Shown: positions 1 to 33,560, counted from the stretch's first letter. The stretch is DNA of 36,815 nt from Gemmatimonadales bacterium (GCA_044221825.1 JBGAOL010000001.1:1-36815); one strand, 5' to 3'. Notes: generated from the sequence alone by a model not told the origin. Translations and numbers: made by a program.

Positions 1-290
1 TCCGCCTCGTCGTCCGCCCGGGGCGGGGCCACCAGCAGCCGCTCGGCGAACTCGAGCCGCTCCTCCACCTCCCGCAGGCGGTGGGCCAAGGTGTCCAGCT
101 CCTCCAGCCGCTCGGCCAGCAACTGTTCGGTCTCTTCCTTTTCCCGGATCGTCTGGTCGCTGCCGAACGCCCCCATGATCCGCTCCGTGCCCCGCCCGAT
201 GGCCCGGCCGATGGGGCCGAGGAGCACCGCCACACTGATGGCCGCGGTCATCATCCAGAATCCGAGCGCCCCGATGCTGTCACCAAACAT
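1..290 (-). CDS. Array member A11 (3' end cut by the window edge): small membrane-anchored coiled-coil protein with an ERLEFAERLL box
   Basis: Hand translation from the ATG at complement 290-288 gives MFGDSIGALGFWMMTAAISVAVLLGPIGRAIGRGTERIMGAFGSDQTIREKEETEQLLAERLEELDTLAHRLREVEERLEFAERLLVAPPRADDEA.., open to position 1. It is not in the ORF track because there is no stop in the window. A CGGAGG sits in the 14-nt spacer after the A10 stop. Confidence 0.7.
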   Translation of the reverse strand, partial: MFGDSIGALGFWMMTAAISVAVLLGPIGRAIGRGTERIMGAFGSDQTIREKEETEQLLAERLEELDTLAHRLREVEERLEFAERLLVAPPRADDEA

Positions 291-304
291 GCCCGCCTCC
301 GGGG

Positions 305-622
305 TCAGCGCGCCGCCGGCAGCGCCTCGGGCGGGGTATCCGCCTCGTCGGGCAGCGCCAGCCGGTCCTGCCGTGTGAGGAGTCGCTCGGTGAAGTCGAG
401 CCGCTCCTCGAGCTCCACCAGACGGATCTCGCGGGCCTCGAGTTCCTGCACCCGCGCCCGGAGCTCCTGCAACTCCCCGGCACCGGCCACCCCGCTCCCC
501 GCCTCGATGCGCCGGGCCCAGGCCCGCACGAGCGGCGTGAGCAGGTACACCGCGGCGAAGGTGATCGTGAAGCCCCCAAGGATGGGACCCAGCCGGTTCA
601 GCACTTCGGGTGAGAAGTCCAT
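305..622 (-). CDS. Array member A10: small TM + coiled-coil protein with an ERLDFTERLL box
   Basis: Track ORF of 105 aa. Hydrophobic helix LGPILGGFTITFAAVYLLTPLV, basic RAWARRIE, heptad-like ELQELRARVQELEAREIRLVELE, then EERLDFTERLL. The ATG lies 3 nt after the A9 stop. Confidence 0.8.
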   Translation of the reverse strand: MDFSPEVLNRLGPILGGFTITFAAVYLLTPLVRAWARRIEAGSGVAGAGELQELRARVQELEAREIRLVELEERLDFTERLLTRQDRLALPDEADTPPEALPAAR

Positions 623-625
623 CGG

Positions 626-916
626 TCACTCTCCGCGTTCGAGGCGGGCGGGATCCTGCTCCCGCTGGCGGACCAGCAGACGCTCCGTGAAATCGAGGCG
701 TTCTTCCAGTTCGTACATCCGTGCCTGCTGACCCTCGAGCTCCTGCACCCGCGCCCGGAGCTCCTCCACCTCCAGCTTGAGCCCCGGATCCGCCCCACCC
801 TCGGGACCGCCGAGCCGCCGGCCCAGGCCCTGCATGATGGGTGTGAACAGCTTGATGGAGCCGATCAGCACCGCGACCGAGACCGCGATGAGCGACATCG
901 TCTCGCCAGGGCCCAT
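626..916 (-). CDS. Array member A9: small TM + coiled-coil protein with an ERLDFTERLL box
   Basis: Track ORF of 96 aa. Helix LIAVSVAVLIGSIKLFTPIM, GLGRRLGG, LEVEELRARVQELEGQQARMYELEERLDFTERLL. The ATG overlaps the A8 stop (TGATG at 914-918). Confidence 0.8.
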   Translation of the reverse strand: MGPGETMSLIAVSVAVLIGSIKLFTPIMQGLGRRLGGPEGGADPGLKLEVEELRARVQELEGQQARMYELEERLDFTERLLVRQREQDPARLERGE

Positions 917-1281
917 CAGCCCTCCTTGCCTGGGGCCAGGCGGCCCGGCTCCGGTTCGCGCTGCTGCACCAGCAGGCGCTCGGTGAAGTCCAGCCGCTCC
1001 TCGAGTTCGAGGACGCGTCCCTGCACCTGTTCCAGCTCCGCGACGCGGGCGTGCAGGTCGGCGATCTCATCCTCCGAGGCCGGGACCTCCCGCTGCCGCG
1101 CGAGGGCCCGGTTCCGCCGCCAGGCGAAGATGAACGTGGACGCGGCGAAAATCCCGAGCACGAGCGGGTCCTCCATCGACGGCCCCGCGATCTCGGCCGC
1201 CATCCCCGCGAGGAAGGCGGTCGCCGTGAAGTGGATCACGAGTTCCACCCCATCCAGGCCGAGGGTCTGCTTGAGGCCCAT
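916..1281 (-). CDS. Array member A8: two-helix variant with an ERLDFTERLL box
   Basis: The track gives a 301-aa ORF (916-1821), but its first 180 aa are Arg/Gly/Pro-rich sequence overlapping A6 and A7 in another frame. The ATG at 1281 lies 2 nt after the A7 stop and is preceded by GGGGAAGGG. It gives 121 aa: MGLKQTLGLDGVELVIHFTATAFLAGMAAEIAG..LVLGIFAASTFIFAWRRNRALARQRE..LELEERLDFTERLL. Confidence 0.75.
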   Translation of the reverse strand: MGLKQTLGLDGVELVIHFTATAFLAGMAAEIAGPSMEDPLVLGIFAASTFIFAWRRNRALARQREVPASEDEIADLHARVAELEQVQGRVLELEERLDFTERLLVQQREPEPGRLAPGKEG

Positions 1282-1283
1282 CG

Positions 1284-1643
1284 TCACCCTTCCCCGGGGC
1301 CGATCCGTTCCGCCTCGCGCTGGCGCACCAGGAGGCGTTCCGCGAAATCCAGCCGCTCCTCGAGCTCCAGCACCCGGGCCTGCCCCTGCTCCAGCTCGGC
1401 CACGCGGTCCTCCAGCTCCATGATCCGCTGGGCCGCGACCTCCCCGGTGCTGGGCTCCCTGGGCTCGAGGGCCGCCCGCTTCCGTCGCCAGGCCAGCACC
1501 CCGAGCGAGGCCAGGAACGCCACCGACACGCCGATCTCCTCCTGCGGCTGGGTCATGGAGCTCAGCATGATGGCGGCCGCGATCGTGGCGCCCGACTGGA
1601 TCAGGAAGTCCACGAAGTCGATCCCCACGTACCGCCGGAACAT
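1284..1643 (-). CDS. Array member A7: two-helix variant with an ERLDFAERLL box
   Basis: Track ORF of 119 aa. Hydrophobic segments SGATIAAAIMLSSM and GVSVAFLASLGVLAW, then WRRKRAALEPRE and VAELEQGQARVLELEERLDFAERLL. It is the closest paralog of A8. The ATG overlaps the A6 stop (TGATG at 1641-1645). Confidence 0.8.
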   Translation of the reverse strand: MFRRYVGIDFVDFLIQSGATIAAAIMLSSMTQPQEEIGVSVAFLASLGVLAWRRKRAALEPREPSTGEVAAQRIMELEDRVAELEQGQARVLELEERLDFAERLLVRQREAERIGPGEG

Positions 1644-1930
1644 CAGGGCGCACCCGGGCCGAGCCGCTCGGCCTCCCGCTGCTGCGTGAGCAGCCGCTCG
1701 GCGAAGTCGAGTCGCTCTTCGAGCTCGGCCACCCGGCCGCGCAGCGCGTCGGACTCATCCAGCCGCGCCCGTAGGTCCGCCACCTCGGCCTCGAGTTCGG
1801 GCGTCGCGCCGGCCTTGCCACGCTCCAGCCGCTTGACGGTCACGTTCACGAACGCGATCACCGCATACACCGACGCGCCCGCCATGCCCATCCCGGCGAA
1901 GACGCCGAACAGCTTGATGAACTCGTCCAT
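1643..1930 (-). CDS. Array member A6: small TM + coiled-coil protein with an ERLDFAERLL box
   Basis: Track ORF of 95 aa. Helix LFGVFAGMGMAGASVYAVIAFVNV, KRLERGK, LEAEVADLRARLDESDALRGRVAELEERLDFAERLL. The ATG overlaps the A5 stop. Confidence 0.8.
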   Translation of the reverse strand: MDEFIKLFGVFAGMGMAGASVYAVIAFVNVTVKRLERGKAGATPELEAEVADLRARLDESDALRGRVAELEERLDFAERLLTQQREAERLGPGAP

Positions 1931-2292
1931 CAGGCCTCCCCCGGCCGAAGGCGCTCCGGCTCACGCTGCTGCGCCAGCAGCCGTTCGGTGAAGTCCACCC
2001 GCTCCTCCAGCTCCATGACCCGGTGCTGCAGCTGGTCCACCTCGGCGAGGCGGGCCCGCAGGTCCTCGACTTCCTGCCGCAGGGCCGGGTCCGCGGAGCC
2101 CTTGCCTTCGATCCGCCGGCCCAAGGCCCGCATCAGGGGCCACAGCACCACCGTGCAGGCCGCCAGGAACCCGAGCGTAATCAGCATGATCACGGGCGCG
2201 GGCATCACTTCCCATGGCGCCGGCGTGTGGGGGAACTGCGGCATCGGCGGCAGCTGTGGCGGCTCCGGGACCTGCACCACCACCTGCCACAT
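1930..2292 (-). CDS. Array member A5: Pro-rich N-terminus, TM, coiled coil and an ERVDFTERLL box
   Basis: The track ORF 1930-2847 (305 aa) was trimmed to the ATG at 2292, which overlaps the A4 stop (TGATG). This gives 120 aa: MWQVVVQVPEPPQLPPMPQFPHTPAPWEVMPAPVIMLITLGFLAACTVVLWPLMRALGRRIEG..VMELEERVDFTERLL. An alternative start at the internal Met (MPAPVIM) is possible. Confidence 0.7.
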   Translation of the reverse strand: MWQVVVQVPEPPQLPPMPQFPHTPAPWEVMPAPVIMLITLGFLAACTVVLWPLMRALGRRIEGKGSADPALRQEVEDLRARLAEVDQLQHRVMELEERVDFTERLLAQQREPERLRPGEA

Positions 2293-2552
2293 CACGAGTC
2301 GCCCCCCGACAGCGATTCGCTCTCCCGCTTGGCGGTGAGCAGCCGCTCGGCGAAGTCCATGCGCTCGTGCAGCTCCGACACCTCGAGGCGCAGGCGCTCC
2401 ACTTCCTCCAGCAGGGCCGGGTCGCCGGTCCCGGCGACTCCCATGGGGCCGTGCCGGATCCGGTCGCTGATGGCCCGGCCGATGTCCGTCTTGGACAGCG
2501 CGATCAGCATGCCGCCGCCGAAGACGATGATGATGAAAAGGGCCCCTTCCAT
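2292..2552 (-). CDS. Array member A4: small TM + coiled-coil protein with an ERMDFAERLL box
   Basis: Track ORF of 86 aa. MEGALFIIIVFGGGMLIALSKTDIGRAISDRIRHG..LLEEVERLRLEVSELHERMDFAERLL. The 9-nt spacer after the A3 stop reads TAG-GAGGCGCGG-ATG, which contains a Shine-Dalgarno site. Confidence 0.8.
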   Translation of the reverse strand: MEGALFIIIVFGGGMLIALSKTDIGRAISDRIRHGPMGVAGTGDPALLEEVERLRLEVSELHERMDFAERLLTAKRESESLSGGDS

Positions 2553-2561
2553 CCGCGCCTC

Positions 2562-2813
2562 CTACTGCCCGTCGGGCAGCTGCTCGGCCTCGCGCCCGCG
2601 GGCCAGCAGCCGCTCGGTGAAGTCCACTCGTTCCTGCAGTTCCGTCAGCTCCTGCCGCATCCGGTCCAGCTCCTCGTAGACCGCGGGGTCGCCCTCGGGG
2701 ATCTCGCGGTGGCCGCGGATGCGGTCGGCGATCGCCTTGCCCACCGGGCTGAAGGAGATCGCGATGGTGGCGCCACCGCCAAAGATCATGATGAGTGCGA
2801 CGATGTCTTCCAT
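2562..2813 (-). CDS. Array member A3: small TM + coiled-coil protein with an ERVDFTERLL box
   Basis: Track ORF of 83 aa. MEDIVALIMIFGGGATIAISFSPVGKAIADRIRGH..ELDRMRQELTELQERVDFTERLL. The ATG overlaps the A2 stop (TGATG at 2811-2815). Confidence 0.8.
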   Translation of the reverse strand: MEDIVALIMIFGGGATIAISFSPVGKAIADRIRGHREIPEGDPAVYEELDRMRQELTELQERVDFTERLLARGREAEQLPDGQ

Positions 2814-3085
2814 CAGGCCCCCTCGCCGGGCGCACCCGAGCGGTCACGGATCATCAGGCGCTCGGTGAACTCCAGCCGCTCCTGCGTCTCGGCCAGTTGC
2901 TGCTGCAGGTGGTCCACCTGGTCGCGGAGCGCATCCACGGCGGCGATCAGGTCGGGATCGCTCCCGGCCGGCACCCGACGGGCATCCGCCCAGGTCTTCA
3001 CGATCTTGACGATGCCCCACGTCATCATGCCGGTGACGATGATGCCGGTGAACATGCCCAGGATGGGAATCACCTCGGGAAGCAT
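2813..3085 (-). CDS. Array member A2: small TM + coiled-coil protein with an ERLEFTERLM box
   Basis: Track ORF of 90 aa. Helix IPILGMFTGIIVTGMMTWGIV, KIVKTWADARR, AAVDALRDQVDHLQQQLAETQERLEFTERLM. The ATG lies 2 nt after the A1 stop. Confidence 0.8.
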   Translation of the reverse strand: MLPEVIPILGMFTGIIVTGMMTWGIVKIVKTWADARRVPAGSDPDLIAAVDALRDQVDHLQQQLAETQERLEFTERLMIRDRSGAPGEGA

Positions 3086-3087
3086 GG

Positions 3088-3366
3088 TCAGCCTCGGGGA
3101 AGCTGTTCGGGAGTGCGGCCGTGGGCCAACAGGCGCTCGGTGAAGTCGAGCCGTTCGTGCGTCTCCGCCAGTTCCTGGCGAACCCCGTCCAGCTCGTGCC
3201 GGAGCTCCGCCACCTCGCCGCGCAATGCGTCCACCTCGGCCCCGGCGCCGCCCCCGCCCGTCCGGATCCGGTGGGCGATGGCCTTCCCGATCTCCGAGCG
3301 GGAGACGAACACCGCCCCCACGGTCAGGAAGAAAGTCATGGGAATCAGGACTTCGGGTCCGGACAT
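3088..3366 (-). CDS. Array member A1 (first gene of the array): small TM + coiled-coil protein with an ERLDFTERLL box
   Basis: The track ORF 3088-3594 (168 aa) was trimmed to the ATG at 3366, giving 92 aa: MSGPEVLIPMTFFLTVGAVFVSRSEIGKAIAHRIRTGGGG..LRGEVAELRHELDGVRQELAETHERLDFTERLL. The discarded upstream part overlaps the 3' end of sdaAA and the spacer and has no family features. Confidence 0.75.
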   Translation of the reverse strand: MSGPEVLIPMTFFLTVGAVFVSRSEIGKAIAHRIRTGGGGAGAEVDALRGEVAELRHELDGVRQELAETHERLDFTERLLAHGRTPEQLPRG

Positions 3367-3455
3367 CCTCGGCCTCGGCAACTCTTGATTGATCGGATCA
3401 CCAGCGCGGCTCCCCGGCTTCCACCGGGTCAGGGCAGTACGGAGAGATGTTTCAG

Positions 3456-3484
3456 CCTGTTTCATAGGAAAACAGGTCTGTTTT
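3456..3484. promoter_or_regulatory. Three-arm inverted repeat in the lower-GC spacer between sdaAA and the array; candidate terminator and/or leader structure
   Basis: cctgttt (3456-3462) pairs with aaacagg (3470-3476). aaaacag (3469-3475) can alternatively pair with ctgtttt (3478-3484). A T-run follows on the plus strand. It lies 4 nt downstream of the sdaAA stop and about 90 nt upstream of the A1 start. Confidence 0.3.
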
Positions 3485-3487
3485 CGG

Positions 3488-5093: not shown

Positions 5094-5309
5094 TCAGATC
5101 AGCTCCACCTCGCGGATCTCGCCCAGGCTCATGGCGATCTCGGTGCTGTCGTCGTCGAGGGGGTGGAGGTAGACCTCATGGGCGGTGATGTGAGTATCCA
5201 CGCTGGTGGGAATGCCGGTGACTTCGTGGCGGTCGGCGGTCACGATCCGCACCGCGCGTTCGTTGCTGTTGGCGAAGCCCAGGACGGCGACGATCTGCTC
5301 GTAGGTCAT
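5094..5309 (-). CDS. Small hypothetical protein (71 aa) downstream of the kinase gene
   Basis: The track ORF 5094-5384 was trimmed to the ATG at 5309, which is preceded by a strong AAGGAGGA Shine-Dalgarno site (encoded as ..NKEDA in the longer ORF). Product: MTYEQIVAVLGFANSNERAVRIVTADRHEVTGIPTSVDTHITAHEVYLHPLDDDSTEIAMSLGEIREVELI. I recognise no family. Confidence 0.55.
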   Translation of the reverse strand: MTYEQIVAVLGFANSNERAVRIVTADRHEVTGIPTSVDTHITAHEVYLHPLDDDSTEIAMSLGEIREVELI

Positions 5310-5384
5310 GGCGTCCTCCTTGTTCAGGGGCAGTCCCGAATGTAGGGCGTGAAGCGCGGAGGGTCGAGGCGCATTTGCGGTCAC

Positions 5385-7226
5385 TCAGCCCAAGGTGCCG
5401 TCCAGCATGTTCACGCGTGGCGGCGGCTCGGGCACCGGGGCGGCACCAAAGACCTGGGCCGCCCGGATGTTCCCCTCGATCGCCGCGATCATCCCGTCCA
5501 CTTCCTCCTCGGCCTTCCGCAGCGCGTACGGGTACAGCAGCCGATACCCAGCCAGGCTGAGGCCGCCGAGCAGTGCCGCACCGCCGAGCGCGGGAAGCGC
5601 CGCGAGCGCCCCGAGACCCATGGCCGCGAGGCTCACCCCGCCGGCAATGGCGGCCCCACTGGTCCCGAGCGCCCCGGCGATCCAGTAGTTGGTGCGAAGA
5701 TTCTTGCGGAGGCCCGGCCGCAGGTCGCCGTAGATGGTGACCTCGGTGCTGGTCCCGCCGGCCCCGGAGACCGGGCGCATCGTGACGTTGAGCTGGAACA
5801 GCTCGAGCTGATACATGCGGTAGGTGAAGGGGGTGTACGACTCGAGCACCCCGGCGCTCGCGAGCCCGCCCTTCATGATGTTGGGTACGTCGAATACGAG
5901 CACGCCGCCGCTGAAGGGGTGCCCACCCACCGTATCGCGCAGCCGGAGGAGATAGGGGCGGGCGGTGAACACCCGGCCGATGGCCTCGAGGGTGAGCTTG
6001 GGGCTGGACTTGATGAGACGGGAGACGGAGAAACTCCGCTTCTCGGTGCCGAGGAGCCGGGTGATCCGGCGATCCTCCCCGGTCCCGCCAACCACCACCG
6101 CCCGCCCCGGGGCGCGGTCACCGGGCTGCTCGGCGAGCGCCAGCGCCACAAACTCCGGCGCGATCCCGACCTCGGCCGCCGCCTGTTCCACGTCCTTGAG
6201 CCGGTAGCCGCCAGTGGGGAGCGACTGGGTGATGCCGATCAGCCCGCCCTCCTGGGAGCGGAGCTGCAGCCGCGACGCGGCCTCCGCCTGCAGCTGCGCC
6301 GCGCGCAGCCAGATGGCCTGGGCCTGGTCCTCCGGGACGACCCGGTCGGCGGAGGTGACCGTGGCGAGCTGCATCGCGGAGCGCTCGAGGGCCAGTGCCA
6401 GCGCGTCGGCCAGGGCCTCGCCGGTGTGGAAGCGTGCCTCCGGCTCGCGGGCCAGGCAGCGGTCGATGACCTCGACGAGTGGGCGCGGCACCGTGGAGCT
6501 GACGGTGGCCAGGGACGGCGCCTGCCGGCTGGCCACGGCCACGAGCACGGCGGTGGCGTTGTCGCCCTCGAAGGGGAGGCGGCCGGAGAGGGCGTAGAAG
6601 CCCGCCACGCCGAGCGAGTAGAGGTCGCTACGGCCGTCGAGGGGCTGGCCGTTGGCCTGCTCCGGGCTCATGTAGTGGACGGTCCCCACCACCTCGCCCT
6701 GCTGGGTGAGGGACGAGGCCGACTGGTCCCGCGCGATGCCGAAGTCGGTGACCACAGCGCGTCCGGTGGCGCGCTCCACCATGATGTTGGCGGCCTTGAT
6801 GTCGCGGTGCACCACGCCCCGGGCGTGCGCGTACGCGAGCGCCCAGGCCGACTCGCGGAGGATGCCTACCACCTCCTGCGGCGGCAGCGGGCCGCGATCC
6901 CGCACCCGCTCGGCCAGGGTCTGGCCGTCGATGTACCCCATCGTGAAGTAGGCGTAGCCGCCCACCTCCTCCGCGCGGTAGATCGGGACGATGTTCGGGT
7001 GGGAAAGCTGGGCGGCGGTCCGTGCCTCACGCAGAAAGCGCTCGCGCACGCCCGGCAGGGCGCCGAGGTGCGGCGGCAGCACCTTGATGGCGACGGGGCG
7101 CTCGAGGCGCGTCTCCCGCGCCAGATAGACGACCCCCATGCCGCCCCGGCCGAGCTCGCGCTCGAGGGAGTACTGGCCCGCAAGGAGCGGGGCGAGCTGT
7201 TCAACGATGCCGTCAGGCGAGGTCAT
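5385..7226 (-). CDS. Hanks-type Ser/Thr protein kinase (STK1) with a large uncharacterised C-terminal domain and a Gly/Ala-rich membrane anchor
   Basis: Track ORF of 613 aa. Kinase motifs: G-loop LGRGGMGVVY, VAIK, HRDIKAANIM, DFG (VTDFGIA), YMSPEQ. The C-terminal ~330 aa has no motif I recognise and ends with YWIAGALGTSGAAIAGGVSLAAMGLGALAALPALGGAALLGGLSLAGY. Confidence 0.85.
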   Translation of the reverse strand: MTSPDGIVEQLAPLLAGQYSLERELGRGGMGVVYLARETRLERPVAIKVLPPHLGALPGVRERFLREARTAAQLSHPNIVPIYRAEEVGGYAYFTMGYIDGQTLAERVRDRGPLPPQEVVGILRESAWALAYAHARGVVHRDIKAANIMVERATGRAVVTDFGIARDQSASSLTQQGEVVGTVHYMSPEQANGQPLDGRSDLYSLGVAGFYALSGRLPFEGDNATAVLVAVASRQAPSLATVSSTVPRPLVEVIDRCLAREPEARFHTGEALADALALALERSAMQLATVTSADRVVPEDQAQAIWLRAAQLQAEAASRLQLRSQEGGLIGITQSLPTGGYRLKDVEQAAAEVGIAPEFVALALAEQPGDRAPGRAVVVGGTGEDRRITRLLGTEKRSFSVSRLIKSSPKLTLEAIGRVFTARPYLLRLRDTVGGHPFSGGVLVFDVPNIMKGGLASAGVLESYTPFTYRMYQLELFQLNVTMRPVSGAGGTSTEVTIYGDLRPGLRKNLRTNYWIAGALGTSGAAIAGGVSLAAMGLGALAALPALGGAALLGGLSLAGYRLLYPYALRKAEEEVDGMIAAIEGNIRAAQVFGAAPVPEPPPRVNMLDGTLG

Positions 7227-9696: not shown

Positions 9697-12354
9697 TCAG
9701 GGATTGGGGCGCGGCACAGTGTCGGCGAGTTCCGCCCGGAAACGCTCGGCCGCGGCGGGCTCGCCCAGGGAGTCGAAGGCGGCCACGAGGTCGCGGCGGG
9801 CGGCACGGAGGAAGCTGGTGGCGGGATCGGTCTGCCGGACCAGGATGTCGTAGCCGGCGCGCGTCTCGCCGATCGCCGCGCGGTAGCGGCCCTGGCGCAG
9901 CAGCGCGCGCCCCAGCTTGATGTGCCCGATGCCGGCGTTGACGTGACCCGGCGGCAGGATGCTGTCGTAGATGGCCAGCGCCTCCCGGAAGAGCGGCTCG
10001 GCGCCGCGCGGGTCGCCGCGCTGCATCACCACGCTGGCCACATTGGCGAGGGCCACGGCCACGAACTGGTGGAACTCCCCCAGGCTGCCCCGGTAGATGG
10101 ACAATGCCTCACGGAACCGCGCCTCCGCCACGGGGTAGTCGTCCACGGTCCAGGCCACGTTGCCGAGTTCGTTCAGGGCTTCCGCCACCTGGGGGTGCCG
10201 GGGGCCGTAGACGCGACGCTGCACGGCGAGCGCCTGGTCCAGGGCCGTCACCGCCTCCGGAATGCGCTTCTGGTAGGTGAGGGCGCGCCCCAGGCGCGTC
10301 AGGTTGGCGGCCACCTCGGGGTGCGCCTCGCCGTACCAGCGGCGCGTGATACCCAGGGCCTCCGTGTACAGCGACTCGGCGGCGGCGTAGTGGCCCAGCA
10401 TGAGCTGCACCTCGCCGAGGGCGGCGAGGTCGCTGGCCACGTCGGGGTGCCGCGGGCCGTGGCGCGCCGCGTCGAGCGCCAGCACGGCGCGGCCCAGGGT
10501 GTCGGCGAGGGGGTAGTCCCCGGCGTAGAAGTGAGCCTGGGCCAGCTCGCGCAGGTGGGTGGCGTGCTCGGGGGTGGAGGCGCCGGCGGCGGCGTCCTGC
10601 CGGACCAGGGCGGCCAGCAGGGTGATGGCTTCGGGGTAGCTGCCGCGCTTCTGCAGCACCTGCGCCAGCGTCACCGTGGCTTCGGCCACCACGGGGTGGT
10701 CGGCCGGGACGGCGTCGCGCACGCGCGACAGCGCGTCGCGGGCCAGCGAATCGGCCTCGGCGAAGCGGGCCTGCGCCATGCGGAGCTGGGCCAGCGCCAC
10801 GAGGCTCCGGGCCAAGGCGGGGTCCTCCGCGGGAACGCGGGTGCGCCGCTGGGCGAGCGCCCGCGCAAGCAGCGTGTCCGCCCGCTCCAGCTGCCCCAGC
10901 CGCTGGAAGACGCTGCCGAGCGTCTGCAGCAGCTCCTCCTGCACCGCCGGCTCCCGGTCGAGCGCCGAGGCATCGCGCACCCCACCCTCGAGCAGCGACA
11001 CCACCCGCAGGCTCTCCGCCGGGGCCACGGCGGCCTCGCCACCCTGGAACAGGCCGAGCATGAACTCCTGGATCCGGGCGCCGCGCGCGGCCTCGGCGAG
11101 CGCGGCGTTGCGCGCCTGCGCCAGCCGGTAGGTGTAGAAGCCCACCAGCCCCACCAGGACGAGCAGCACGAGCGTGGCCGCGGCGGTGGCGGCCGCGTGG
11201 CGCCGGAGGAACTTGCCGAGGCGATACCCGAGCGCATCGGGCCGCGCCTCGAGGGGCTCCCCGGCCAGGAACCGGTCGATCTCGGCAATGAGCGCATCCA
11301 CGCTGCGATAGCGCCGTGCGGGATCGGGATGGATGGCGGTGAGGCAGAGCACGTCGAGGTCCGCCCAAGTGCTTGTGCCCACGGCGGACCAAAGCTCGCC
11401 GGCGCGCCCGGCCACCTCACGTGAGGCCAGGGATGGCCGGACCGGCGGGCCGCGCAGGACGAGGGCGGCCGCGGCCTCGGGCGCGAGACCGGTGACGTCG
11501 AACGGCAGCCGGCCGGCGAGCAGCTCGTAGAGGACGACACCGAGGGCATAGACGTCCGTATGCACGCCGATGCGCCCGCCGAGGAGCTGCTCGGGCGCCG
11601 CATAGCCGGGGGTCAGGGCGCGGAGACCGGTGCGGGTCTGGTCGGCCGGGAGGTCCACCGCCTCGAGCTGCTTGGCGATGCCGAAATCGAGCAGCTTCAC
11701 CACGCCGTCGGCGCGGACCAGGATGTTGGACGGCTTGAGGTCGCGGTGAATGACCGCGTGCTCGTGTGCGTGCCGGACGGCCTCGGCCACGGTGCGGAGC
11801 AGCCGGAGCCGCTCGCGCATGGAGCTCCGGCGGGTCCGGCACCACTCGGTGAGCGGGAGCCCGTCGACGTACTCCATGGCAAACCACGGGGTGCCGTCGG
11901 GCAGCATGTCGGCGTCGTACAGCCGGGCGATGCCCGGGTCGTTGAGCTGGGCCAGCGTGCGCTGCTCGGCCCGGAAGCGCTCGCGCCGCGCGGGGGAGAG
12001 CCAGGCGTCGGGCAGGATCTTGATGGCCGCCTGGGTGCGGAGGTCCGCGCGCTCAGCGAGGTAGACCACGCCCATGCCGCCCTCGCCCAGGATCCGGAGC
12101 AGGCGGTAGGGACCGAACAGCTGGCGGCGCGCCGGCTGGTCCACGCGGCCCACCACCACCTCGGCGGCACCGGCGAGGCCGCGGTCGAGGACCGAGTCGT
12201 CGGCGGCATCGGCCGCGAGCATCCCGAGGACAAGGCTCGCCAGCTCCACGTCGGCCCCCGCCCGGGCGCGCACGTGCGCCTCGCGGGCCGGGGCGGCCTG
12301 GGCCAGCGCCTCGTGGAAGAGCGCCTGGATCTCGTCCCAGCGGGCGCGCTCCAT
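9697..12354 (-). CDS. Ser/Thr protein kinase (STK2) with a transmembrane segment and a long C-terminal TPR-like repeat domain
   Basis: Track ORF of 885 aa. Kinase motifs LGEGGMGVVYLA, AAIKIL, HRDLKPSNIL, DFGIAK, YAAPEQ. One hydrophobic helix (AAATLVLLVLVGLVGFYTY). About 450 aa of repeated TPR-like units follow (..HP.VA..L..LG.V......Y..AE.L...AL..). The ATG lies 5 nt after the ECF sigma stop. Confidence 0.85.
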   Translation of the reverse strand: MERARWDEIQALFHEALAQAAPAREAHVRARAGADVELASLVLGMLAADAADDSVLDRGLAGAAEVVVGRVDQPARRQLFGPYRLLRILGEGGMGVVYLAERADLRTQAAIKILPDAWLSPARRERFRAEQRTLAQLNDPGIARLYDADMLPDGTPWFAMEYVDGLPLTEWCRTRRSSMRERLRLLRTVAEAVRHAHEHAVIHRDLKPSNILVRADGVVKLLDFGIAKQLEAVDLPADQTRTGLRALTPGYAAPEQLLGGRIGVHTDVYALGVVLYELLAGRLPFDVTGLAPEAAAALVLRGPPVRPSLASREVAGRAGELWSAVGTSTWADLDVLCLTAIHPDPARRYRSVDALIAEIDRFLAGEPLEARPDALGYRLGKFLRRHAAATAAATLVLLVLVGLVGFYTYRLAQARNAALAEAARGARIQEFMLGLFQGGEAAVAPAESLRVVSLLEGGVRDASALDREPAVQEELLQTLGSVFQRLGQLERADTLLARALAQRRTRVPAEDPALARSLVALAQLRMAQARFAEADSLARDALSRVRDAVPADHPVVAEATVTLAQVLQKRGSYPEAITLLAALVRQDAAAGASTPEHATHLRELAQAHFYAGDYPLADTLGRAVLALDAARHGPRHPDVASDLAALGEVQLMLGHYAAAESLYTEALGITRRWYGEAHPEVAANLTRLGRALTYQKRIPEAVTALDQALAVQRRVYGPRHPQVAEALNELGNVAWTVDDYPVAEARFREALSIYRGSLGEFHQFVAVALANVASVVMQRGDPRGAEPLFREALAIYDSILPPGHVNAGIGHIKLGRALLRQGRYRAAIGETRAGYDILVRQTDPATSFLRAARRDLVAAFDSLGEPAAAERFRAELADTVPRPNP

Positions 12355-12359
12355 GGGAC

Positions 12360-12896
12360 TCAGGGGCCGGGACGGAGCGCGTGGGCCAGCCAGGCGCGGG
12401 CCGCGCGCCAGTCCCGCAGCACGGTGGCCTCCGACACGCCGAGAAGCTCGGCGATCTCGGGGACCTCGAGGCCGCCGAAAAAGCGGCCCTCCACCATGGC
12501 GGCCTGCCGCGGGCTCACCCGCGCCAGCGTCTCCAGCGCCTCGTGCAGGCCCAGCACCTCGGCCGGGCTCGTGGTGCCGCCCTCGAGGGCATCGTCGAGC
12601 GTCACCGGCATCGCCCCGCCGCCGCGCTTGTCGGCCAGGCGCCGGCGCGCGGCCTCCACCAGCACCTGCCGCATGGCCCGGGCGGCCACCCGCTTGAACT
12701 CAAGCCGCGAGAGCCGCCCCACGGCGGGCGTGGCGGCCAGCTTGAGCCACGCCTCGTTGACCAGCGCGGTGGGCGTGAGCGTCACCTGCCGGTCCCCGCG
12801 ACGCACGGCACCCGCCAGCCGCCTGAGCTCCTCGTACGCCGCCGCGAAGAGCCGATCCACCGCCAGCCGCTCGTCATCCGGGACCATGGTCACCAT
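12360..12896 (-). CDS. ECF-type RNA polymerase sigma factor (TIGR02999-like subgroup, the type usually paired with Ser/Thr kinases)
   Basis: The track ORF 12360-13508 was trimmed to the ATG at 12896 (GGAGG 6 nt upstream; the discarded 204 aa are Gly/Arg/Ala-rich shadow sequence). This gives 178 aa: LFAAAYEELRRLAGAV.., region 2 LTPTALVNEAWLKL, region 4 HTH EIAELLGVSEATVLRDWRAARAWL. Confidence 0.8.
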   Translation of the reverse strand: MVTMVPDDERLAVDRLFAAAYEELRRLAGAVRRGDRQVTLTPTALVNEAWLKLAATPAVGRLSRLEFKRVAARAMRQVLVEAARRRLADKRGGGAMPVTLDDALEGGTTSPAEVLGLHEALETLARVSPRQAAMVEGRFFGGLEVPEIAELLGVSEATVLRDWRAARAWLAHALRPGP

Positions 12897-13031
12897 TGGG
12901 GCCCTCCGTGGTTCCCAAGGTACGCCCGGGACCGGAATCGGCCAGCCACCCGTCGGCCTCATTCGGGCCATGATGGTTTTTCCCCGCGTCCTGCGCATGG
13001 CGAAGGGACACCCCCATGGACGGAGGCTTGG

Positions 13032-13979
13032 ATGCGTGGACTGACAGTGATGGCGCTCGGGATCGGGGCGCTGGCGGCGGGCATCGGTTGTGGTGGCGGC
13101 GGAAGCACCGGTCCCTCGAATGGCGGCGGTGGAGGGGGCGGAGGCGGTGGCGGGGGCGGCGGAGGATCCAGCGGGTTCTCCGCCGTGATCGACGGCCAGG
13201 CCTGGAGCGCCAGCAGCACCAGCCGGAAGGCCCAGGTCGGCCCGTTCGGGGCCATCACCATCCAGGGCCTGGCCAACGGCACCACGCTGCTCCTGATCCT
13301 CTACAACATCGACTCGGTGGGCACCTATCCGCTCGGCATGGGCGGGACCGCGGTGGGCGGCCTCGGACAGGTCAGCGACCTCACCGGCCGCGGCTGGAGC
13401 ACGCCGCTCTCCGGGGCGGCGGGCAGCGTGACCATCACCACGCTCACCAGCAGCAGGATCGTGGGGACCTTCACCTATGATGCCGATTCCCTCCTGGGCA
13501 GCGCCCATGGGACACGGGCCGTGACCGCGGGCCAGTTCGACCTGCTCCTCGGCGGCACCTTCGCCCCCCTGCCCGACAATGCCGGGAGCCGGCTGGACGG
13601 CACGGTGGGCGGCGCGCCGTGGCTGGCGTCGACGGTGGTGATGCAGCTGCAGGCCGGCACCCTGGTGCTCGGTGCCAACAACACCGCGTACACCCTGTCG
13701 GTGGCCGTGACGGGCTTCACGGGGCCCGGCACGTACACGGTGGGCTCCGCCCCGGGCGACGCGGTGGTCACCATGATCGGGCCGGTGTCCAATCCCTTCG
13801 GCAGCGTGAACTGCTGCTGGGGCGGCGGCGGCGGGAACACCGGCACCCTCACCGTCACCGCGCTGAGCGCCACGCGGCTTCAGGGCACCCTCTCCGCCTC
13901 GTTACCGCCCACGCCGGCCACCGCAGCGTCCGGCACGCTCACGGTGAGCGGCGTGACGTTCGACATCGGCATTCCCTGA
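13032..13979 (+). CDS. Lipoprotein with a poly-Gly linker and two tandem beta-rich modules; unknown function
   Basis: The track ORF 12381-13979 was trimmed to the ATG at 13032 (GGAGG at 13022-13026), giving 315 aa. Lipobox LAAGIGC, then a GGGGSTGPSNG(15)SSG linker. Two similar ~130-aa modules each end in a T(L/V)T.L(T/S)..R(I/L).GT(F/L) motif. Confidence 0.7.
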   Translation: MRGLTVMALGIGALAAGIGCGGGGSTGPSNGGGGGGGGGGGGGGGSSGFSAVIDGQAWSASSTSRKAQVGPFGAITIQGLANGTTLLLILYNIDSVGTYPLGMGGTAVGGLGQVSDLTGRGWSTPLSGAAGSVTITTLTSSRIVGTFTYDADSLLGSAHGTRAVTAGQFDLLLGGTFAPLPDNAGSRLDGTVGGAPWLASTVVMQLQAGTLVLGANNTAYTLSVAVTGFTGPGTYTVGSAPGDAVVTMIGPVSNPFGSVNCCWGGGGGNTGTLTVTALSATRLQGTLSASLPPTPATAASGTLTVSGVTFDIGIP

Positions 13980-14024: not shown

Positions 14025-14909
14025 ATGTGGGGCTTCATCACGGGACTGTTCAGCCTGCTGCTCTGGATCGGCCTGCCGCTGCTGGCGTTCGCGGCGTGGA
14101 CGTACAACAAGCTGCAGAAGCAGGCGCAGGAGGTGCGCGAGGCCACCTCGAACGTGCAGGTGGCGGTGGCCAAGAAGCTCAACCTGGTCAACCAGCTCGG
14201 GGACATCGTGAAGAACTTCCAGGCCAGCGAGCAGTTCACCCACCTCAAGCTGGCGCAGGACAACAACTCGGCGGCCATCGCGGTGGCCTATGCCCAGTCG
14301 GGCGCGGTGCTGAGCTCCCTGATGGGCGCCGCCGAGCGCTCGCCCGAGTTCAAGGCCAGCGAGCAGTACCACCGGCTGGTGGACAGCATCCAGCACTGCG
14401 AGCTGGACATCCAGCACGCGCGCACCACGCTCAACACCGCGGTGAAGCACTACAACAATGCCTACCTGGCGTTCCCGACCGTCCTGCTGGCGCCGGTGCT
14501 GGGCTTCTCCAAGGCGCCCTACCTCGAGTTCGACGTGAGCGGGAACGTGGACGCCACGGCGCTCAAGAGCTTCCAGACGGACGACGGGGAGCGGCTCAAG
14601 CAGCTGCTGGCGGGCGCGGGTGGCTCGCTGGCCGGCGCCACGCGGACGCTGGCGGGGGCGGCGGGCCAGGCGGGGAAGCTGCTGGCGGTGCAGGCGGGGA
14701 ACGCGGGGAAGCTGATCGCCGCCAAGGCGGCGGAGCGCGGCGGCACCAGCTACTTCTACCTGCCGCGTGGCGGGGTGCCCCGCGGGCCGGTGCCGCTGCC
14801 CACGGTGCGGGAACTCATCCAGCGCGGGGAACTCGAGGCCGACGTCATGGTGGCGCGCGCCGGCTCGGAGGAGTGGCAGCCCGTGTCCGCGCTGCCGCAG
14901 GACGCCTGA
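14025..14909 (+). CDS. LemA-family membrane protein fused to a C-terminal GYF_2 (DUF4339)-like domain
   Basis: Track ORF of 294 aa. N-terminal helix plus LemA-like core (WTYNKLQKQAQEV.., ..PEFKASEQYHRLVDSIQHCELDIQHARTTLNTAVKHYNNAYLAFPTVLLAPVLGF). An Ala/Gly-rich linker follows. The C-terminus is YFYLPRGGVPRGPVPLPTVRELIQRGELEADVMVARAGSEEWQPVSALP. Confidence 0.7.
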   Translation: MWGFITGLFSLLLWIGLPLLAFAAWTYNKLQKQAQEVREATSNVQVAVAKKLNLVNQLGDIVKNFQASEQFTHLKLAQDNNSAAIAVAYAQSGAVLSSLMGAAERSPEFKASEQYHRLVDSIQHCELDIQHARTTLNTAVKHYNNAYLAFPTVLLAPVLGFSKAPYLEFDVSGNVDATALKSFQTDDGERLKQLLAGAGGSLAGATRTLAGAAGQAGKLLAVQAGNAGKLIAAKAAERGGTSYFYLPRGGVPRGPVPLPTVRELIQRGELEADVMVARAGSEEWQPVSALPQDA

Positions 14910-14930: not shown

Positions 14931-15623
14931 TCAGCGCACCAGTTCCGCGGTGGCGCCGCCGGCGGGTTGCAGCAGGACGGTGTTGAAGAAGGGGCTCGGG
15001 GCGCCCTGCAGCGCCGTGAGCAGGCCCTCGAGGCTCGTGACCTCGATAGCCAGCGTGGCGGGCGTGCCGACCTGCGCCTGCGTCTGCTGCCGCAGGGCCA
15101 GGACCTCGCCGAAGCCCAGGAAGGCCGGAATCACCTGGTGGCCATTCACCGTGATGGTGACGTACCCCAGCGCGTCGGAGCGGAGCAGGAACACCGGCGT
15201 GCCCTGCACCGCGGCCTTCCCCTGGCGCCGCAACTCGTCGTTGGCCGCCAGCACCTGTTCGGGATCCGGCACGAAGGTGATCTCGTAGCCGCCGGCCGCG
15301 GGCCGCTGCCGCAGCACGTCACTCAGCGTCGGCGAGTCGAGGCGGAGCTGGGACGCCACCGTGGCGTTCTGGGCCTTCACCCCGGCCAGGAAGCTCTCCG
15401 CCTGGGCACGCCGCAGGAACAGCACCACCGTGGGCCGGCCGTTGGGCGGGGTGCTCACGAGGAGATTGCCGCCGGCATTGATGTGGGTGAAGACCGGCAG
15501 GGTCTCCGTGGCACGGAAGAGATTGGCCGGGGAGCCCCCCTGGGCCACGAGGGCGGGAGCGCCCAGCACGAGGGCCAGGAGTAAGGCGGCAGCCGAGGCG
15601 GGGCGACGGGGCACGGCGGGCAT
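14931..15623 (-). CDS. Secreted Tic22-like protein (tentative)
   Basis: The track ORF 14931-15941 was trimmed to the ATG at 15623, giving 230 aa with a signal peptide (MPAVPRRPASAAALLLALVLGAPALVAQG). Two half-domains resemble Tic22: LPVFTHINAGGNLLV..VVLFLRRAQAESFL..YEITFVPDPEQV and TPVFLLRSDALGYVTITVNGHQVIPAFLGFGEV. There is no obvious Shine-Dalgarno site, so the start is uncertain. Confidence 0.5.
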   Translation of the reverse strand: MPAVPRRPASAAALLLALVLGAPALVAQGGSPANLFRATETLPVFTHINAGGNLLVSTPPNGRPTVVLFLRRAQAESFLAGVKAQNATVASQLRLDSPTLSDVLRQRPAAGGYEITFVPDPEQVLAANDELRRQGKAAVQGTPVFLLRSDALGYVTITVNGHQVIPAFLGFGEVLALRQQTQAQVGTPATLAIEVTSLEGLLTALQGAPSPFFNTVLLQPAGGATAELVR

Positions 15624-15721
15624 CCGGGATCGAGTCGGGGACGCGCGTTCACCGGGATGGCGACGCGTCACTCGCCGGAAAAGTAGCGGACCCGCCCGGA
15701 GGTGGGAGGGCACGCACGGGG

Positions 15722-17353
15722 TCAGCCGCCTCCGCCGCCCTCGCGCCAGCGTTCGAGGGACTCGACACGCGCCTCGAGCCGCGCCAGCCGGTCGGACTCG
15801 GCACGCAGCGGGGAGGCCGGCGGCGAAGCCGGTGTCACCCGGACCGGGGAGACAGGCGGCGGGGTGAGGTGCGGACCGCCGGCCGGCGTCACGCCACGGG
15901 CGGCCAGTCGGAGGAAAAGGCGCCCCGGCAGCCCCATCCACACCACCCGGAAGAGCCGCTCGCCGATGCCGGGGCGGAACGGGCTGCGCATCAGGCCGAT
16001 CATCGAGATGCCGATCATGACCACGGCCGACAGCAACATCACCACATACGGGCGGGGCACCGTGAAGTGGTTGGGACCGTTCGGTACCCGTGCCTGCAGG
16101 ACCACCCAGATCATCAACACACCCATGGCGGTCAGGCTGCCGAAGGTGATCACCGTCCTCCGCCGTCGCGCCACCACCTGCGGCAGCGACCGCAAGCGCG
16201 CCCGCTCCTCCTCGCGTTCGCTCAGCACGCGCCCGAACCCGGCCAGGATCTCTGCCGGCAGGAAGCCGGCCTCCACCACGCGCCGGGCGGCACCCATGGT
16301 CATCGCCAGCCGTCCCCAGAGCACCGCGAGCAGGAAGATCCCCGGCAGCGCGATGTCGATGTTGTCAGGCCCCCGCTGCGCCGTGCCGCCCTGCCACATC
16401 GTGATAATGATCAGCAGGAAGACGGCCACGAGGCCGAGTTGTCCCAGGTCCTGCGCCAGCAGCCGCACCGGGAGCGCCACCTCGGGTGCCGAGAGCTGCG
16501 CCGACTCGAGGGCCTCCACCAGCGCCTCGGCCGAGGCGAAGCGATCGCCGGGTTCCTTCCGCAGCTGCCGGTCGCTGCCATCCGCGCGCGGGGGTGGCAG
16601 GTCGGGGCGGCGCAGCGCCACCGACGGCACGGCCTCGGTGAGCTGGCGGACGAGGATCTTCTGCGTGGTGTCACCGCTGATGGCCAGCTGGCCCGTCACC
16701 GCGAACCAGGCCACGAGTCCGAGCGAATAGAGGTCGCTCCGCCCGTCCACCGTGTCGCCGGAGGCCTGCTCGGGGCTCATGAACTCCGGCGTGCCCACCA
16801 CCTCGCCCACCCGGGTGAGGCCGGGGGCGGCGGCGGCGCCCGGCGCCGCGATGCTGCGCGAGATGCCGAAGTCGGTGACCAGGGCGCGGCCGGTGGCGCG
16901 GTCCAGCAGGATGTTGTCCGGCTTGATGTCGCGGTGCACCACCCCGCGGCCATGCGCGTACGCCAGCGCCCACGCCACGTCCTGCAGCAGCCGCACCGCC
17001 TCCTTGGTGCCGAGCGGCCCGGTCCGCGCCACCCGCGCACCGAGGGACTCGCCCTCCACGTACCCCATGGCGAAGGCCAGGAGCCCGTCCTGCTCCTCCA
17101 CGCCGTAGACCGGGACGATGTTGGGATGGGAGAAGCTGGCGGCGGTGCGGGTCTCGCGCAGGAACCGCTCCCGCAGTTCCGGCTGGGTGGCGAGGTCGGG
17201 CGGGAGGACCTTGATGGCCACGGGACGGTCGAGCCGCCGCTCGCGCGCGAGGTACACCGCGCCCATCCCGCCCCGTCCCAGCTGGCGCAGGATCTCGTAG
17301 CGCTCGCCGAGGCGGGCGCGGAGGTCGGGGAGGGAGTCGGCGGGGGCGGTCAT
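15722..17353 (-). CDS. Ser/Thr protein kinase (STK3) with a C-terminal four-helix membrane module and a short coiled-coil tail
   Basis: The track ORF 15722-17935 was trimmed to the ATG at 17353, giving 543 aa. Kinase motifs [40 protein letters not shown]. The kinase domain is clearly paralogous to STK1. About four hydrophobic helices follow, and the tail is [28 protein letters not shown]. Confidence 0.85.
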   Translation of the reverse strand: [543 protein letters not shown]

Positions 17354-17394
17354 GGGTCGAACATATCCCGCCGCCGGCCGGTCCGCGAGCGTCC

Positions 17395-20259
<2,865 letters not shown>

Positions 20260-20344: not shown

Positions 20345-20742
20345 TCAGCCGCCCGAAAGGCGGGCCAGCGCCACGATGATGAACAGCACCACCGGCCAGT
20401 GGCCGAGGATGCAGCGCACCGCGTTCCGCACCGCGTACCCGGCCACCAGCCACACCCCATGCCCGGGACCCGATCCCGGCGCCGATGGCCATCAGGTAGA
20501 GGGGAATGTTGAGCGGCCCGAGGCGTTCGGTGGGCACCACCCGGGCGAAGATCATCAGGGTCAGCGCGATGCCGAGCGCGCTCAGGACGAAGACGATCAC
20601 CCGGCCCGACGGTGAGCTGGGCCCGCTTGCGCACGTCGAGCTCCTGCTCCAGGCGCAGCCGGTCCTCGAGGCGCGCCAGCTCCACGTCCGAGAGCTGGTC
20701 CAGCTCGTCCTCGTTCACGTAGAACTCGGTGAGGCCGAACAC
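20345..20742 (-). pseudogene. Small membrane protein gene readable only across three frames (2 frameshifts)
   Basis: The GTG at 20742 is preceded by GGGAGGG and lies directly after the upstream stop. Frame A: [46 protein letters not shown]. Near 20600 it continues in frame B: [45 protein letters not shown]. Near 20465 it continues in frame C: [39 protein letters not shown], ending at the stop at 20345-20347. Both junctions lie in G/C runs. Confidence 0.55.
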
Positions 20743-20743
20743 C

Positions 20744-21485
20744 TCAGGGCCCTCCCTGCACGCACAGCACCACCTTCACCTCGGTGTCGCGATAGCCGCC
20801 GCTCGAGCCCACCGAGGGCCGCCGGCCGTCCCCGATCTGGATGGCGCTCCCGGCCGGCCGCCCAGACCGACACCGGCCGCTCCAGCGTCGGCCAGCTGGA
20901 GAGGGTCGGCAGGTTGCCCAGTCGCCGGGCAGGCCCCAGCCGGGGCCCAGTTCGCGGCACCAGGCCTCGGCCTCGCGGTACGTGCCCTTCACCAGGAGTG
21001 AGTCGGTGATCAGGAGTTGCCAGTCGGCGCCGGACGCCTGGGCGGGGTCCACCACGATGCCGCGGGCCCGGTTCCTCCGGTCGAGGCCGCGTTCTGCTCC
21101 GCGAGGAAGTCGCCGCCTGCCCCCGAAGGCCTCGCGCGATGCCGGAGTTGGGCCCCAGCAGCGCCACCAGGGTGCCGAGCAGCAGCACCACCACCAGTAC
21201 GGATGTCCCGGCCTGGAAGCCGCGATGCACCTGGGCCTGCACCCGCGCCCACACCGTCCCGAACGCCATGTCCGCCGCCCCGATGGCCAGGGCGGTGAGC
21301 GTCACCCCGATCGGCCCCGACGGCAGCACCCGCTGCGCCAGCCCGCCCACCACCCCCATCAGCACCAGGCGGAGCACCAGGCGGGTGAGGTTGGTGGCCG
21401 AGAAGATGCCGATGCGCCGCTCGGGGTGGCGGCGCTCGTCGAGCAGCACACGGATCCGCTCCAGGCGGGCGGCGCGGTCGATCAT
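20744..21485 (-). pseudogene. Membrane protein with an extracytoplasmic DUF1566 (Lcl C-terminal)-like domain, disrupted by at least 4 frameshifts
   Basis: From the ATG at 21485: MIDRAARLERIRVLLDERRHPERRIGIFSATNLTRLVLRLVLMGVVGG..SVLVVVLLLGTLVALLGPNSGIARGL. The reading then hops frames near 21120 (..DFLAEQNAASTGGTGPAA) and near 21065 (IVVDPAQASGADWQLLITDSLLVKGTYREAEAWCRELGPGWGLPGDW). It hops again near 20918 (NLPTLSSWPTLERPVSVWAAG) and near 20855 ([36 protein letters not shown]-stop). Confidence 0.55.
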
Positions 21486-21647
21486 GGACTCGGGGTGTGG
21501 GGAACGAACGGCGCACGGCGCCGGGACAGAATTGTACACCAGACCCGGCGATCGGCGCGCCCCGGGGCGCACCCCCGTGGCGCGGGGCACGTCCCTGCTA
21601 TTATTCAGGCCACCCGTCGTCCCCATTGTCCCGCACCCGTGAGGCCG

Positions 21648-22435: not shown

Positions 22436-22469
22436 CCCCCGCCGCCGCCGCCGTCCCCCCCGCGCCGCG

Positions 22470-27264: not shown

Positions 27265-27541
27265 GGGCGGGGCTCCGGTCGGCGCGGGGAGGGGACGGTC
27301 GTGGCCCGTCCTGGCGCCGGGACAGCTGCGTCCGCCGGGCGCCCGGCCCCGCCGCGCGTACCGCGGGGCCGCGCATGGGGACGTCGACCGCCCCGCCACC
27401 TGACAAGCACCGCGCCGCCCGCCTAGGCGTGCGTGTTTTTGGACCGGCCTGCGTTGGAATGCGACCGGTCTTTCGGGGGAGAGGCCCTACTGTGGGCGCG
27501 CCGTCATGCCACGCGCTGCACCCCGTCCCCGGAGGCTGTCC

Positions 27542-33420: not shown

Positions 33421-33560
33421 GCTGGACTCCGCAGGTGGACCTGCCAAACCGCGTTGTATGAAGAAACCTAGGGTAGTGCGCCCCGACCGCAAGCCGCACC
33501 GCCGTGAGGGGCCGGATGCGCGGAGCCTGTTCCATGTTCTGCGGCCACCGTCGGTTCCAC

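Follow-up and report, generated by a model that had tools for sequence, protein, structure and literature searches.

Background

Proteins of the PspA/IM30/Vipp1 group are bacterial ESCRT-III proteins, and PspA/IM30 repairs membranes. To our knowledge, the targeting of PspA-type proteins to the damaged membrane is known in few lineages, each of which has its own unrelated small membrane partner. Proteobacterial PspB and PspC, LiaI of Firmicutes and actinobacterial PspM are membrane partners of PspA homologues, and LiaI and PspM have been proposed as tethers of PspA or LiaH to the membrane (PMC11237479). A further arrangement, described by Ravi et al. 2024 (PMC11237479), is the CesT/Tir-PspA dyad, the published classes of which carry band-7/flotillin, an AAA+ ATPase, YqiJ, polyamine genes or DUF350. 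Gemmatimonadetes are not mentioned in the surveys of phage shock protein (PSP) systems by Ravi et al. 2024 (PMC11237479) and Popp et al. 2022. The present study concerns a stretch of 36,815 nucleotides from a Gemmatimonadales bacterium (GCA_044221825.1 JBGAOL010000001.1:1-36815; hereafter the window), at the left end of which (1-3366) eleven minus-strand genes stand back to back, each coding for a small membrane protein with an ERLDF(T/A)ERLL box.

We consider, with moderate confidence, that the proteins of this array are lineage-specific, amplified membrane partners of PspA in an envelope-stress operon. Gene order and a common stress-type promoter motif link the family to pspA; from these sequence data we infer that the proteins would be induced by stress, would contact PspA physically and would oligomerise.

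Linkage of the array to pspA

A search of a species-level genome collection returned 79 best genome loci, all of which (79/79) belong to Gemmatimonadota, mostly metagenome-assembled genomes (MAGs) of Gemmatimonadales/Gemmatimonadaceae. An earlier reading of the window, made from its sequence alone (the sequence-only reading), had proposed to map phyletic spread and copy number. When the six-frame open reading frames (ORFs) of the 79 loci were searched with the profile, comparable same-strand tandem arrays were found in most of them, with a median of 6 and a maximum of 14 copies.

Among the 62 loci with at least 1500 nt of sequence downstream of the array, 55 contain a pspA gene on the same strand, at most 1500 nt downstream, and all seven loci without a downstream pspA are solitary copies. 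Clustering of the flanking ORFs likewise recovered a same-strand downstream gene in 48 loci, the product of which begins MGIWDRF...NDLI..AENPEKML and matches PspA_IM30 (PF04012, E=2e-48). A CesT_Tir_1 protein (PF22550) is encoded by the gene that separates the array from pspA. By tblastn, this CesT-like gene lies at most 800 nt downstream in 27 of the 62 loci; it is present in 36 and missing in 22 of the 58 Gemmatimonadota loci that have pspA. In the loci designated L001, L080 and L086, the PF22550 gene stands immediately upstream of the PF04012 gene.

Two of these loci share the upstream context of the window: L001, with sdaAB and sdaAA upstream, and L086 (GCA_016713435.1, JADJPD010000012.1), with genes for DPP-IV and a Ser/Thr kinase followed by sdaAB and sdaAA. 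The order is 13 array copies, the cesT-like gene and pspA in L001, and 12 copies followed by the same two genes in L086, with gaps of 17-47 nt between array and cesT-like gene and of 3 nt between the latter and pspA; on the plus strand, the L086 operon is free of terminator-like sites. In such relatives the array appears to be the promoter-proximal part of a cesT-like/pspA operon. The window appears to be a whole contig, as a member of the copy-9 cluster is carried by a contig of 36,815 nt. This contig ends inside the last array copy, and the orthologue of this copy, 107 amino acids (aa) at full length, is the final copy in both L001 and L086, where the cesT-like gene and pspA come next. The array thus comprises 11 copies in all and does not continue past the left edge, a possibility that the sequence-only reading had raised. 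By comparison with these relatives, the cesT-like gene and pspA are expected just past the contig end.

The remaining neighbors vary. Among the loci, uvrA lies 51-8600 nt upstream of the array or is absent, sdaAB/sdaAA are confined to one subclade, and a DUF1611 gene lies 900-4000 nt downstream or is absent; the genes downstream in L080 and L086 include AI-2E_transport, DUF1611 and ABC transporters. Invariance of the box is the same whether a cesT-like gene is present (36 loci) or missing (22 loci), indicating that the chaperone does not constrain the box. Self-association or PspA binding would remain as candidates for this constraint.

A stress-type promoter motif upstream of the array

The sequence-only reading had placed the possible start of a single transcript in 3367-3487, and a motif of the extracytoplasmic function (ECF) sigma type was indeed found there. 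The putative control elements are:

3438-3464, minus strand: ECF-sigma-type promoter motif, with -35 element TGAAAC (3464-3459), 17-nt spacer and -10 element CGTA (3441-3438)
3454-3449, minus strand: second TGAAAC, 10 nt downstream of the first
3476-3470 and 3462-3456: inverted repeat CCTGTTT/AAACAGG, overlapping the -35 element; possible operator

Within the 121 nt that precede copy 1 lies ATGAAACAGGCTGAAACATCTCTCCGTA (3465-3438, minus strand), in which the GAAAC begins 97 nt upstream of the first start codon, and the equivalent regions of relatives align with a conserved TGAAACA...CCGTA. No sigma-70-like site was seen in this 121-nt gap, and no sigma-54 site (TGGCAC-N5-TTGCW, up to 2 mismatches) in 3367-3487. 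The sigma-W regulon of Bacillus subtilis includes pspA. The elements of the array motif equal the ECF-class promoter consensus of B. subtilis sigma-W, tgaAAC / CGTA (PMC5758882).

The pattern GAAAC-N16-18-CGTA matched 73 times on both strands of 2.28 Mb of loci, as compared with 10.3 +/- 2.2 times in shuffled sequences. The matches are distributed as follows:

On the strand of a family member and no more than 260 nt upstream of it: 51 (the window and 50 related loci)
Inside the conserved uvrA peptide: 13
Elsewhere: 9, about the number expected by chance

The spacer is 17 nt long in 49 of the 51 upstream instances, and a GTTtC arm upstream of, and facing, the GAAAC is visible in their consensus. 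Together with the second TGAAAC, the inverted repeat may form an operator for an additional regulator. The claim that the array junctions leave no room for internal promoters holds in the window but not throughout the family: in a clade in which uvrA abuts the array, the motif occurs internally and precedes the last copy and pspA.

Two further candidates were rejected. The GAAAC-N17-CGTA inside uvrA is probably a coding coincidence, as it encodes a conserved peptide and is devoid of the flanking T and A of the promoter consensus. It occurs at a fixed position, about 400 nt before the end of uvrA, in L012, L027, L037, L039, L040, L043, L050, L053, L062, L069, L071, L076 and L078, some of which have uvrA directly upstream of the array. 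The hairpin at 3455-3477 was considered as a terminator of sdaAA; its T-run lies on the wrong strand, and it is better read as the inverted repeat over the -35 element.

Array genes and their products

The eleven genes are listed below in the order of transcription:

Copy 1: 3088-3366, minus strand, 92 aa, one transmembrane (TM) segment, box HERLDFTERLL; 87% identity with L001 copy 1
Copy 2: 2813-3085, minus strand, 90 aa, box QERLEFTERLM
Copy 3: 2562-2813, minus strand, 83 aa, TM segment containing GGG, box QERVDFTERLL; 98% identity with L086 copy 4
Copy 4: 2292-2552, minus strand, 86 aa, box HERMDFAERLL
Copy 5: 1930-2292, minus strand, 120 aa, extracytoplasmic Pro-rich N-tail and TM segment, box EERVDFTERLL; the commonest type in the database
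Copy 6: 1643-1930, minus strand, 95 aa, box EERLDFAERLL; one residue different from database protein P0002
Copy 7: 1284-1643, minus strand, 119 aa, two hydrophobic segments; 99% identity with L086 copy 8
Copy 8: 916-1281, minus strand, 121 aa, two hydrophobic segments
Copy 9: 626-916, minus strand, 96 aa; the copy modeled with AlphaFold2
Copy 10: 305-622, minus strand, 105 aa, Pro-rich acidic C-tail DEADTPPEALPAAR
Copy 11: 1-290, minus strand, last copy, truncated by the contig end and so about 11 residues short at the C-terminus, box EERLEFAERLL

All eleven ORFs of 83-121 aa described in the sequence-only reading are present, and their junctions are exactly as claimed: five TGATG overlaps (916, 1643, 1930, 2292 and 2813) and five gaps of 2, 2, 3, 9 and 14 nt. 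The array genes are translationally coupled. Independent gene callers also call the array ORFs, and six array frames pass a coding-like filter, with a third-position GC of 0.85-0.94.

Each protein consists of a variable TM/periplasmic part, a conserved basic juxtamembrane motif (P..RA..RR.EG) and a flexible Gly/Pro linker, followed in the cytoplasm by an amphipathic helix, about 50 residues long, which carries the invariant ELEERLDF(T/A)ERLL box. In the alignment of the array products, E..ER..F.ERL is invariant in 11 of 11 copies. The hydrophobic helices proposed earlier, two each in 916-1281 and 1284-1643, are seen in the hydropathy profiles, and among 120 family members the mean score of the best 19-residue hydropathy window is 2.47. 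The first helix of the two-TM copies is covered by only three homologues in the database. Lys and Arg residues flanking the strongest hydrophobic 19-mer average 0.16 on the N-terminal side versus 3.88 on the C-terminal side of the 120 members, with a C-terminal excess in 115 of them, which argues for an N-out/C-in topology. The cytoplasmic placement of the coiled coil, first deduced from the positive-inside rule in the window, is thus borne out by a charge bias that holds across the 120 members. The AlphaFold2 model of copy 9, computed with a 120-sequence alignment, contains a helix at residues 3-34, a low-confidence flexible linker at 35-43 and a long helix at 44-95 that includes the box; its predicted local distance difference test (pLDDT) score averages 84.6 and reaches 97-98 at residues 51-80, box included. 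A FERME-like motif, by which the box would mimic a PspA helix, was considered and rejected, since hhalign against 54 Gemmatimonadota PspA sequences gave a probability of 0.35%.

Of 311 pairwise differences in the box-coding DNA, 85 are at codon position 1, none at position 2 and 226 at position 3, and 182 of the 311 affect codons with identical amino acids. Their concentration at position 3 and absence from position 2 indicate selection on the peptide rather than maintenance of a DNA repeat, in agreement with the sequence-only reading.

The window copies have colinear best matches in L001, L003, L004, L024, L053 and L008. Identities between orthologues (45-99%) mostly exceed those between paralogs (30-64%), and we conclude that the duplications are old and the copies individually maintained. 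Copy number is still changing, with 11, 12 and 13 copies in close relatives. Copy 2 (2813-3085) is a chimera, in which the N-terminal ~60 aa correspond to copy 2 of the relatives and the C-terminal ~30 aa to their copy 3 (compared regions: L086 4557-5104 and L001 10282-10832). The breakpoint lies close to the conserved box. The chimera and the change in copy number point to unequal recombination between paralogs, or to assembly collapse.

Family size and database searches

The array proteins belong to a large family without a name, for which Gemmatimonadota are so far the only known source. Searching with a profile of the 11 copies retrieved more than 7482 clusters at 90% identity, and HMMER, run exhaustively, retrieved 3168 representatives at 50% identity (E<=1e-3), 820 of which reach E<=1e-10; none of the family representatives carries a Pfam domain. 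Product names in the source records are "hypothetical protein" or, in Joint Genome Institute (JGI) records, "Tfp pilus assembly protein PilO/PilN", and the latter labels are spurious. The sequence-only reading could name no family, and the searches concur: the array proteins gave no significant match in Pfam or NCBIfam, where only sub-threshold coiled-coil noise was returned, nothing below E=0.08 in a PDB sequence search, and no match in a Foldseek comparison of the predicted structure with the PDB. The same Pfam/NCBIfam scans gave no Lia match (LiaI-LiaF-TM), and PspM appeared below threshold only, for one copy (NF047839, E=0.012, 15.6 bits versus an 80-bit cut-off). Exact look-ups of two window proteins returned no record, and the close relatives were reached via the database proteins P0002 and P0387. 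The box strings were not found in the literature searched, which also held no paper joining Gemmatimonadota with PspA, IM30 or Vipp1.

Four apparent two- or three-domain "fusion" proteins (P0001, P0241, P0252 and P0260) were not taken as evidence of fusions or as a basis for oligomer models, as each seems to contain, in its middle part, frameshifted read-through of neighboring genes. A distinct solitary subfamily, with the consensus M..IPI.AL.IP...RLEEA.LRAG...EVHERLDF, is encoded singly in varied contexts, away from pspA. Members occur at:

L038, 9971-10237
L048, 2359-2613
L054, 3842-4111
L058, 2924-3217
L061, 1063-1374
L068, 9959-10243

Alternative explanations

Several points weigh against a role of the array proteins as PspA partners. 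The pspA gene lies outside the window and is placed beside the array by way of the relatives, while solitary members of the family occur away from it. The loci all come from one phylum, so that gene order could partly be a matter of inheritance; uvrA is also often found upstream. The putative partnership draws on genomic linkage, and the predicted promoter on a sequence motif. The ECF sigma gene of the window (12360-13508) neighbors the array in L001 only and is not conserved, and the direct repeat of TGAAAC together with the inverted repeat would allow for a transcription-factor site instead of, or besides, an ECF promoter. Some of these points suit the explanation that the proteins are independent, stress-induced membrane stabilizers or scaffolds for other clients, their adjacency to pspA reflecting a shared regulon and inherited synteny rather than physical partnership. 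Such a role would agree with the solitary members in unrelated contexts, with the synteny of the whole uvrA...pspA region within the phylum and with the lack of any sequence similarity that would relate the family to PspA (hhalign probability 0.35%). We nevertheless judge it unlikely, although worth keeping in mind, given that every multi-copy array with enough flanking DNA has pspA close downstream while other neighbors vary, and that the promoter type is shared and in one clade would drive the last copy and pspA only. Homology to PspB is rather improbable. The proteins would then be highly diverged true homologues, sharing ancestry with PF06667 and amplified in Gemmatimonadota, and they do resemble PspB in size class, single-TM N-out/C-in topology, leucine-zipper-like cytoplasmic helix and the putative operon partner pspA. 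PF06667 is weakly matched by 11 of the 120 members, with E=0.0028 at best, TIGR02976 matches reach E=0.06 and 0.18 (51.7-bit cut-off), and hhalign pairs the box (E..R..ELEERLD) with the conserved PspB motif EAKRMRERIQALESILD. This pairing, however, has a probability of 6.2% over 17 columns, against a PspB profile that is shallow and enterobacterial only; no window copy reaches E<=1 against PF06667; and the Pfam matches are no better than coiled-coil noise (WD40_alt, SlyX, DUF6611). In addition, no PspC gene (PF04024) was found among the called genes of L080 and L086 or the scanned window ORFs, the array lies upstream rather than downstream of pspA, and its promoter region is free of sigma-54 sites. 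The view of the sequence-only reading, a PspB-like architecture with a box that is not that of PspB, agrees with the cesT-like/pspA operon context, and membership in the PspB family is unsupported.

The JGI product names call for a comparison with periplasmic coiled-coil proteins of the PilN/PilO or FtsB/DivIC kind. Weak matches to PilO (PF04350) in 8 of the 120 members (best E=0.011) and to a PilN chain (3jc8, E=0.64) go in the same direction, but all are far below threshold. The charge bias in 115 of the 120 members places the C-terminal helix in the cytoplasm, 83-121 aa are too short for the PilN/PilO core domain, and no pilus or divisome genes occur nearby, either among the scanned window ORFs or in the gene tables of L080 and L086; we therefore regard this relationship as very improbable. 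High-GC DNA yields many long spurious ORFs, and a single weak holin match was obtained (PF16080, E=0.0098). The explanation that the array consists of spurious ORFs of a GC-rich DNA repeat, or of a mobile, defence or phage lysis module, is nonetheless effectively refuted by the third-position GC of the listed array frames, by the gathering of substitutions at synonymous sites and by the thousands of homologues; moreover, PADLOC returned no match for the array, and the viral contigs contained no relatives of the family.

Other genes in the window

Three Ser/Thr protein kinase genes occur within 13 kb, and the coordinates listed for them together with the ECF sigma gene are 5385-7226, 9697-12354, 12360-13508 and 15722-17935. 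One of the kinases has a long TPR region and is paired with the ECF sigma gene, which is of the PF07638 type. L080 has a similar kinase and ECF sigma pair, at a distance of 4.4 kb downstream of pspA. As a neighbor of the array the pair is not conserved, and the pair of the window was on that ground rejected as the cognate regulator of the array. Between a kinase gene and sdaAB, a small ORF (5094-5384, at most 96 codons) has high third-position GC and no Pfam match; its counterpart in L086 (2336-2551) is called as a 71-aa gene.

A LemA-family protein fused to a C-terminal GYF_2 module adjoins a Tic22-like protein on the opposite strand (14025-14909 and 14931-15941), both of envelope-associated families. 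Long ORFs without a Pfam match at E<=1e-5 are found at 20715-23955, 24743-26395 and 27506-28738, of which only the last lies in a frame passing the coding-like filter. In the region 30581-35314, the gene for CcmF (30581-32626) is followed by those for a zinc-ribbon protein (32623-33636) and for a multihaem cytochrome c (33719-35314), which indicates a cluster for cytochrome maturation and respiration.

Proposed role

In the mechanism that we propose for the array proteins as PspA partners, an ECF-sigma-type promoter (TGAAACA-N17-CGTA) would transcribe the array, followed by the genes for the CesT/Tir-like chaperone and PspA/IM30. The paralogs would form homo- or hetero-oligomeric helical assemblies beneath the membrane, and these may serve as membrane-embedded partners that anchor, recruit or regulate PspA. 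The diversified TM/periplasmic parts may sample different membrane states, whereas the common box would provide a shared cytoplasmic interface.

A more specific version, which we offer as a tentative possibility, is that of a combinatorial adaptor for a bacterial ESCRT-III protein: 5-14 individually conserved bitopic paralogs with differing TM or periplasmic sensor ends and one shared cytoplasmic helix would build a hetero-oligomeric platform that positions or nucleates PspA polymers at the damaged membrane, under a single ECF sigma switch. If true, this would be a principle of PspA membrane reception unlike that of the PspBC, LiaI or PspM systems. Independently of such detail, the locus adds a large family without a Pfam or NCBIfam model in the releases searched, recovered only from one phylum, which is abundant in soil, and up to 14 old, individually conserved paralogs are unusual among PSP partners. 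The array is a natural system in which to ask whether PspA is recruited through a short conserved helical box. Likewise, the promoter motif gives access to an ECF regulon in Gemmatimonadota; the literature searched held no description of such a promoter, or of PSP regulation, in this phylum.

Comparison with known PSP systems

By analogy, our position is that the family probably works like PspB or LiaI, membership in the PspB family not being established. Like PspB, the array proteins are small bitopic inner-membrane proteins with N-out/C-in topology and a leucine-zipper-like cytoplasmic helix, putatively encoded in an operon with pspA, and they share a short motif, R-hydrophobic-x-x-L-E-x-x-L-D, in a 17-column stretch that aligns with RIQALESILD of PspB. 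Unlike PspB, which is encoded by a single gene (rarely two) under a sigma-54/PspF promoter, they are encoded by 5-14 tandem paralogs upstream of pspA, behind an ECF-type motif, and they possess a different invariant box and an extra juxtamembrane motif.

The resemblance to LiaI (liaIH operon) and PspM (Rv2743c) lies in a small membrane-protein gene directly upstream of a pspA homologue, and in its co-induction with that gene by an envelope-stress regulator, which is predicted for the array. The sequences are unrelated, however, and both are single genes, regulated by LiaRS or ClgR. With the CesT/Tir-PspA dyad operons, the relatives of the window locus share a PF22550 gene directly upstream of a PF04012 gene. 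The gene tables of L080 and L086 are devoid of band-7/flotillin, AAA+ ATPase, YqiJ, polyamine enzymes and DUF350, and in contrast to these loci no published dyad class contains an array of small TM and coiled-coil proteins (PMC11237479). The promoter motif resembles the sigma-W type of B. subtilis (TGAAAC-N16-CGTA) in its -35 and -10 elements and its fixed spacing, and differs from it in a 17-nt spacer, a second TGAAAC and an upstream inverted-repeat arm, in an unrelated phylum.

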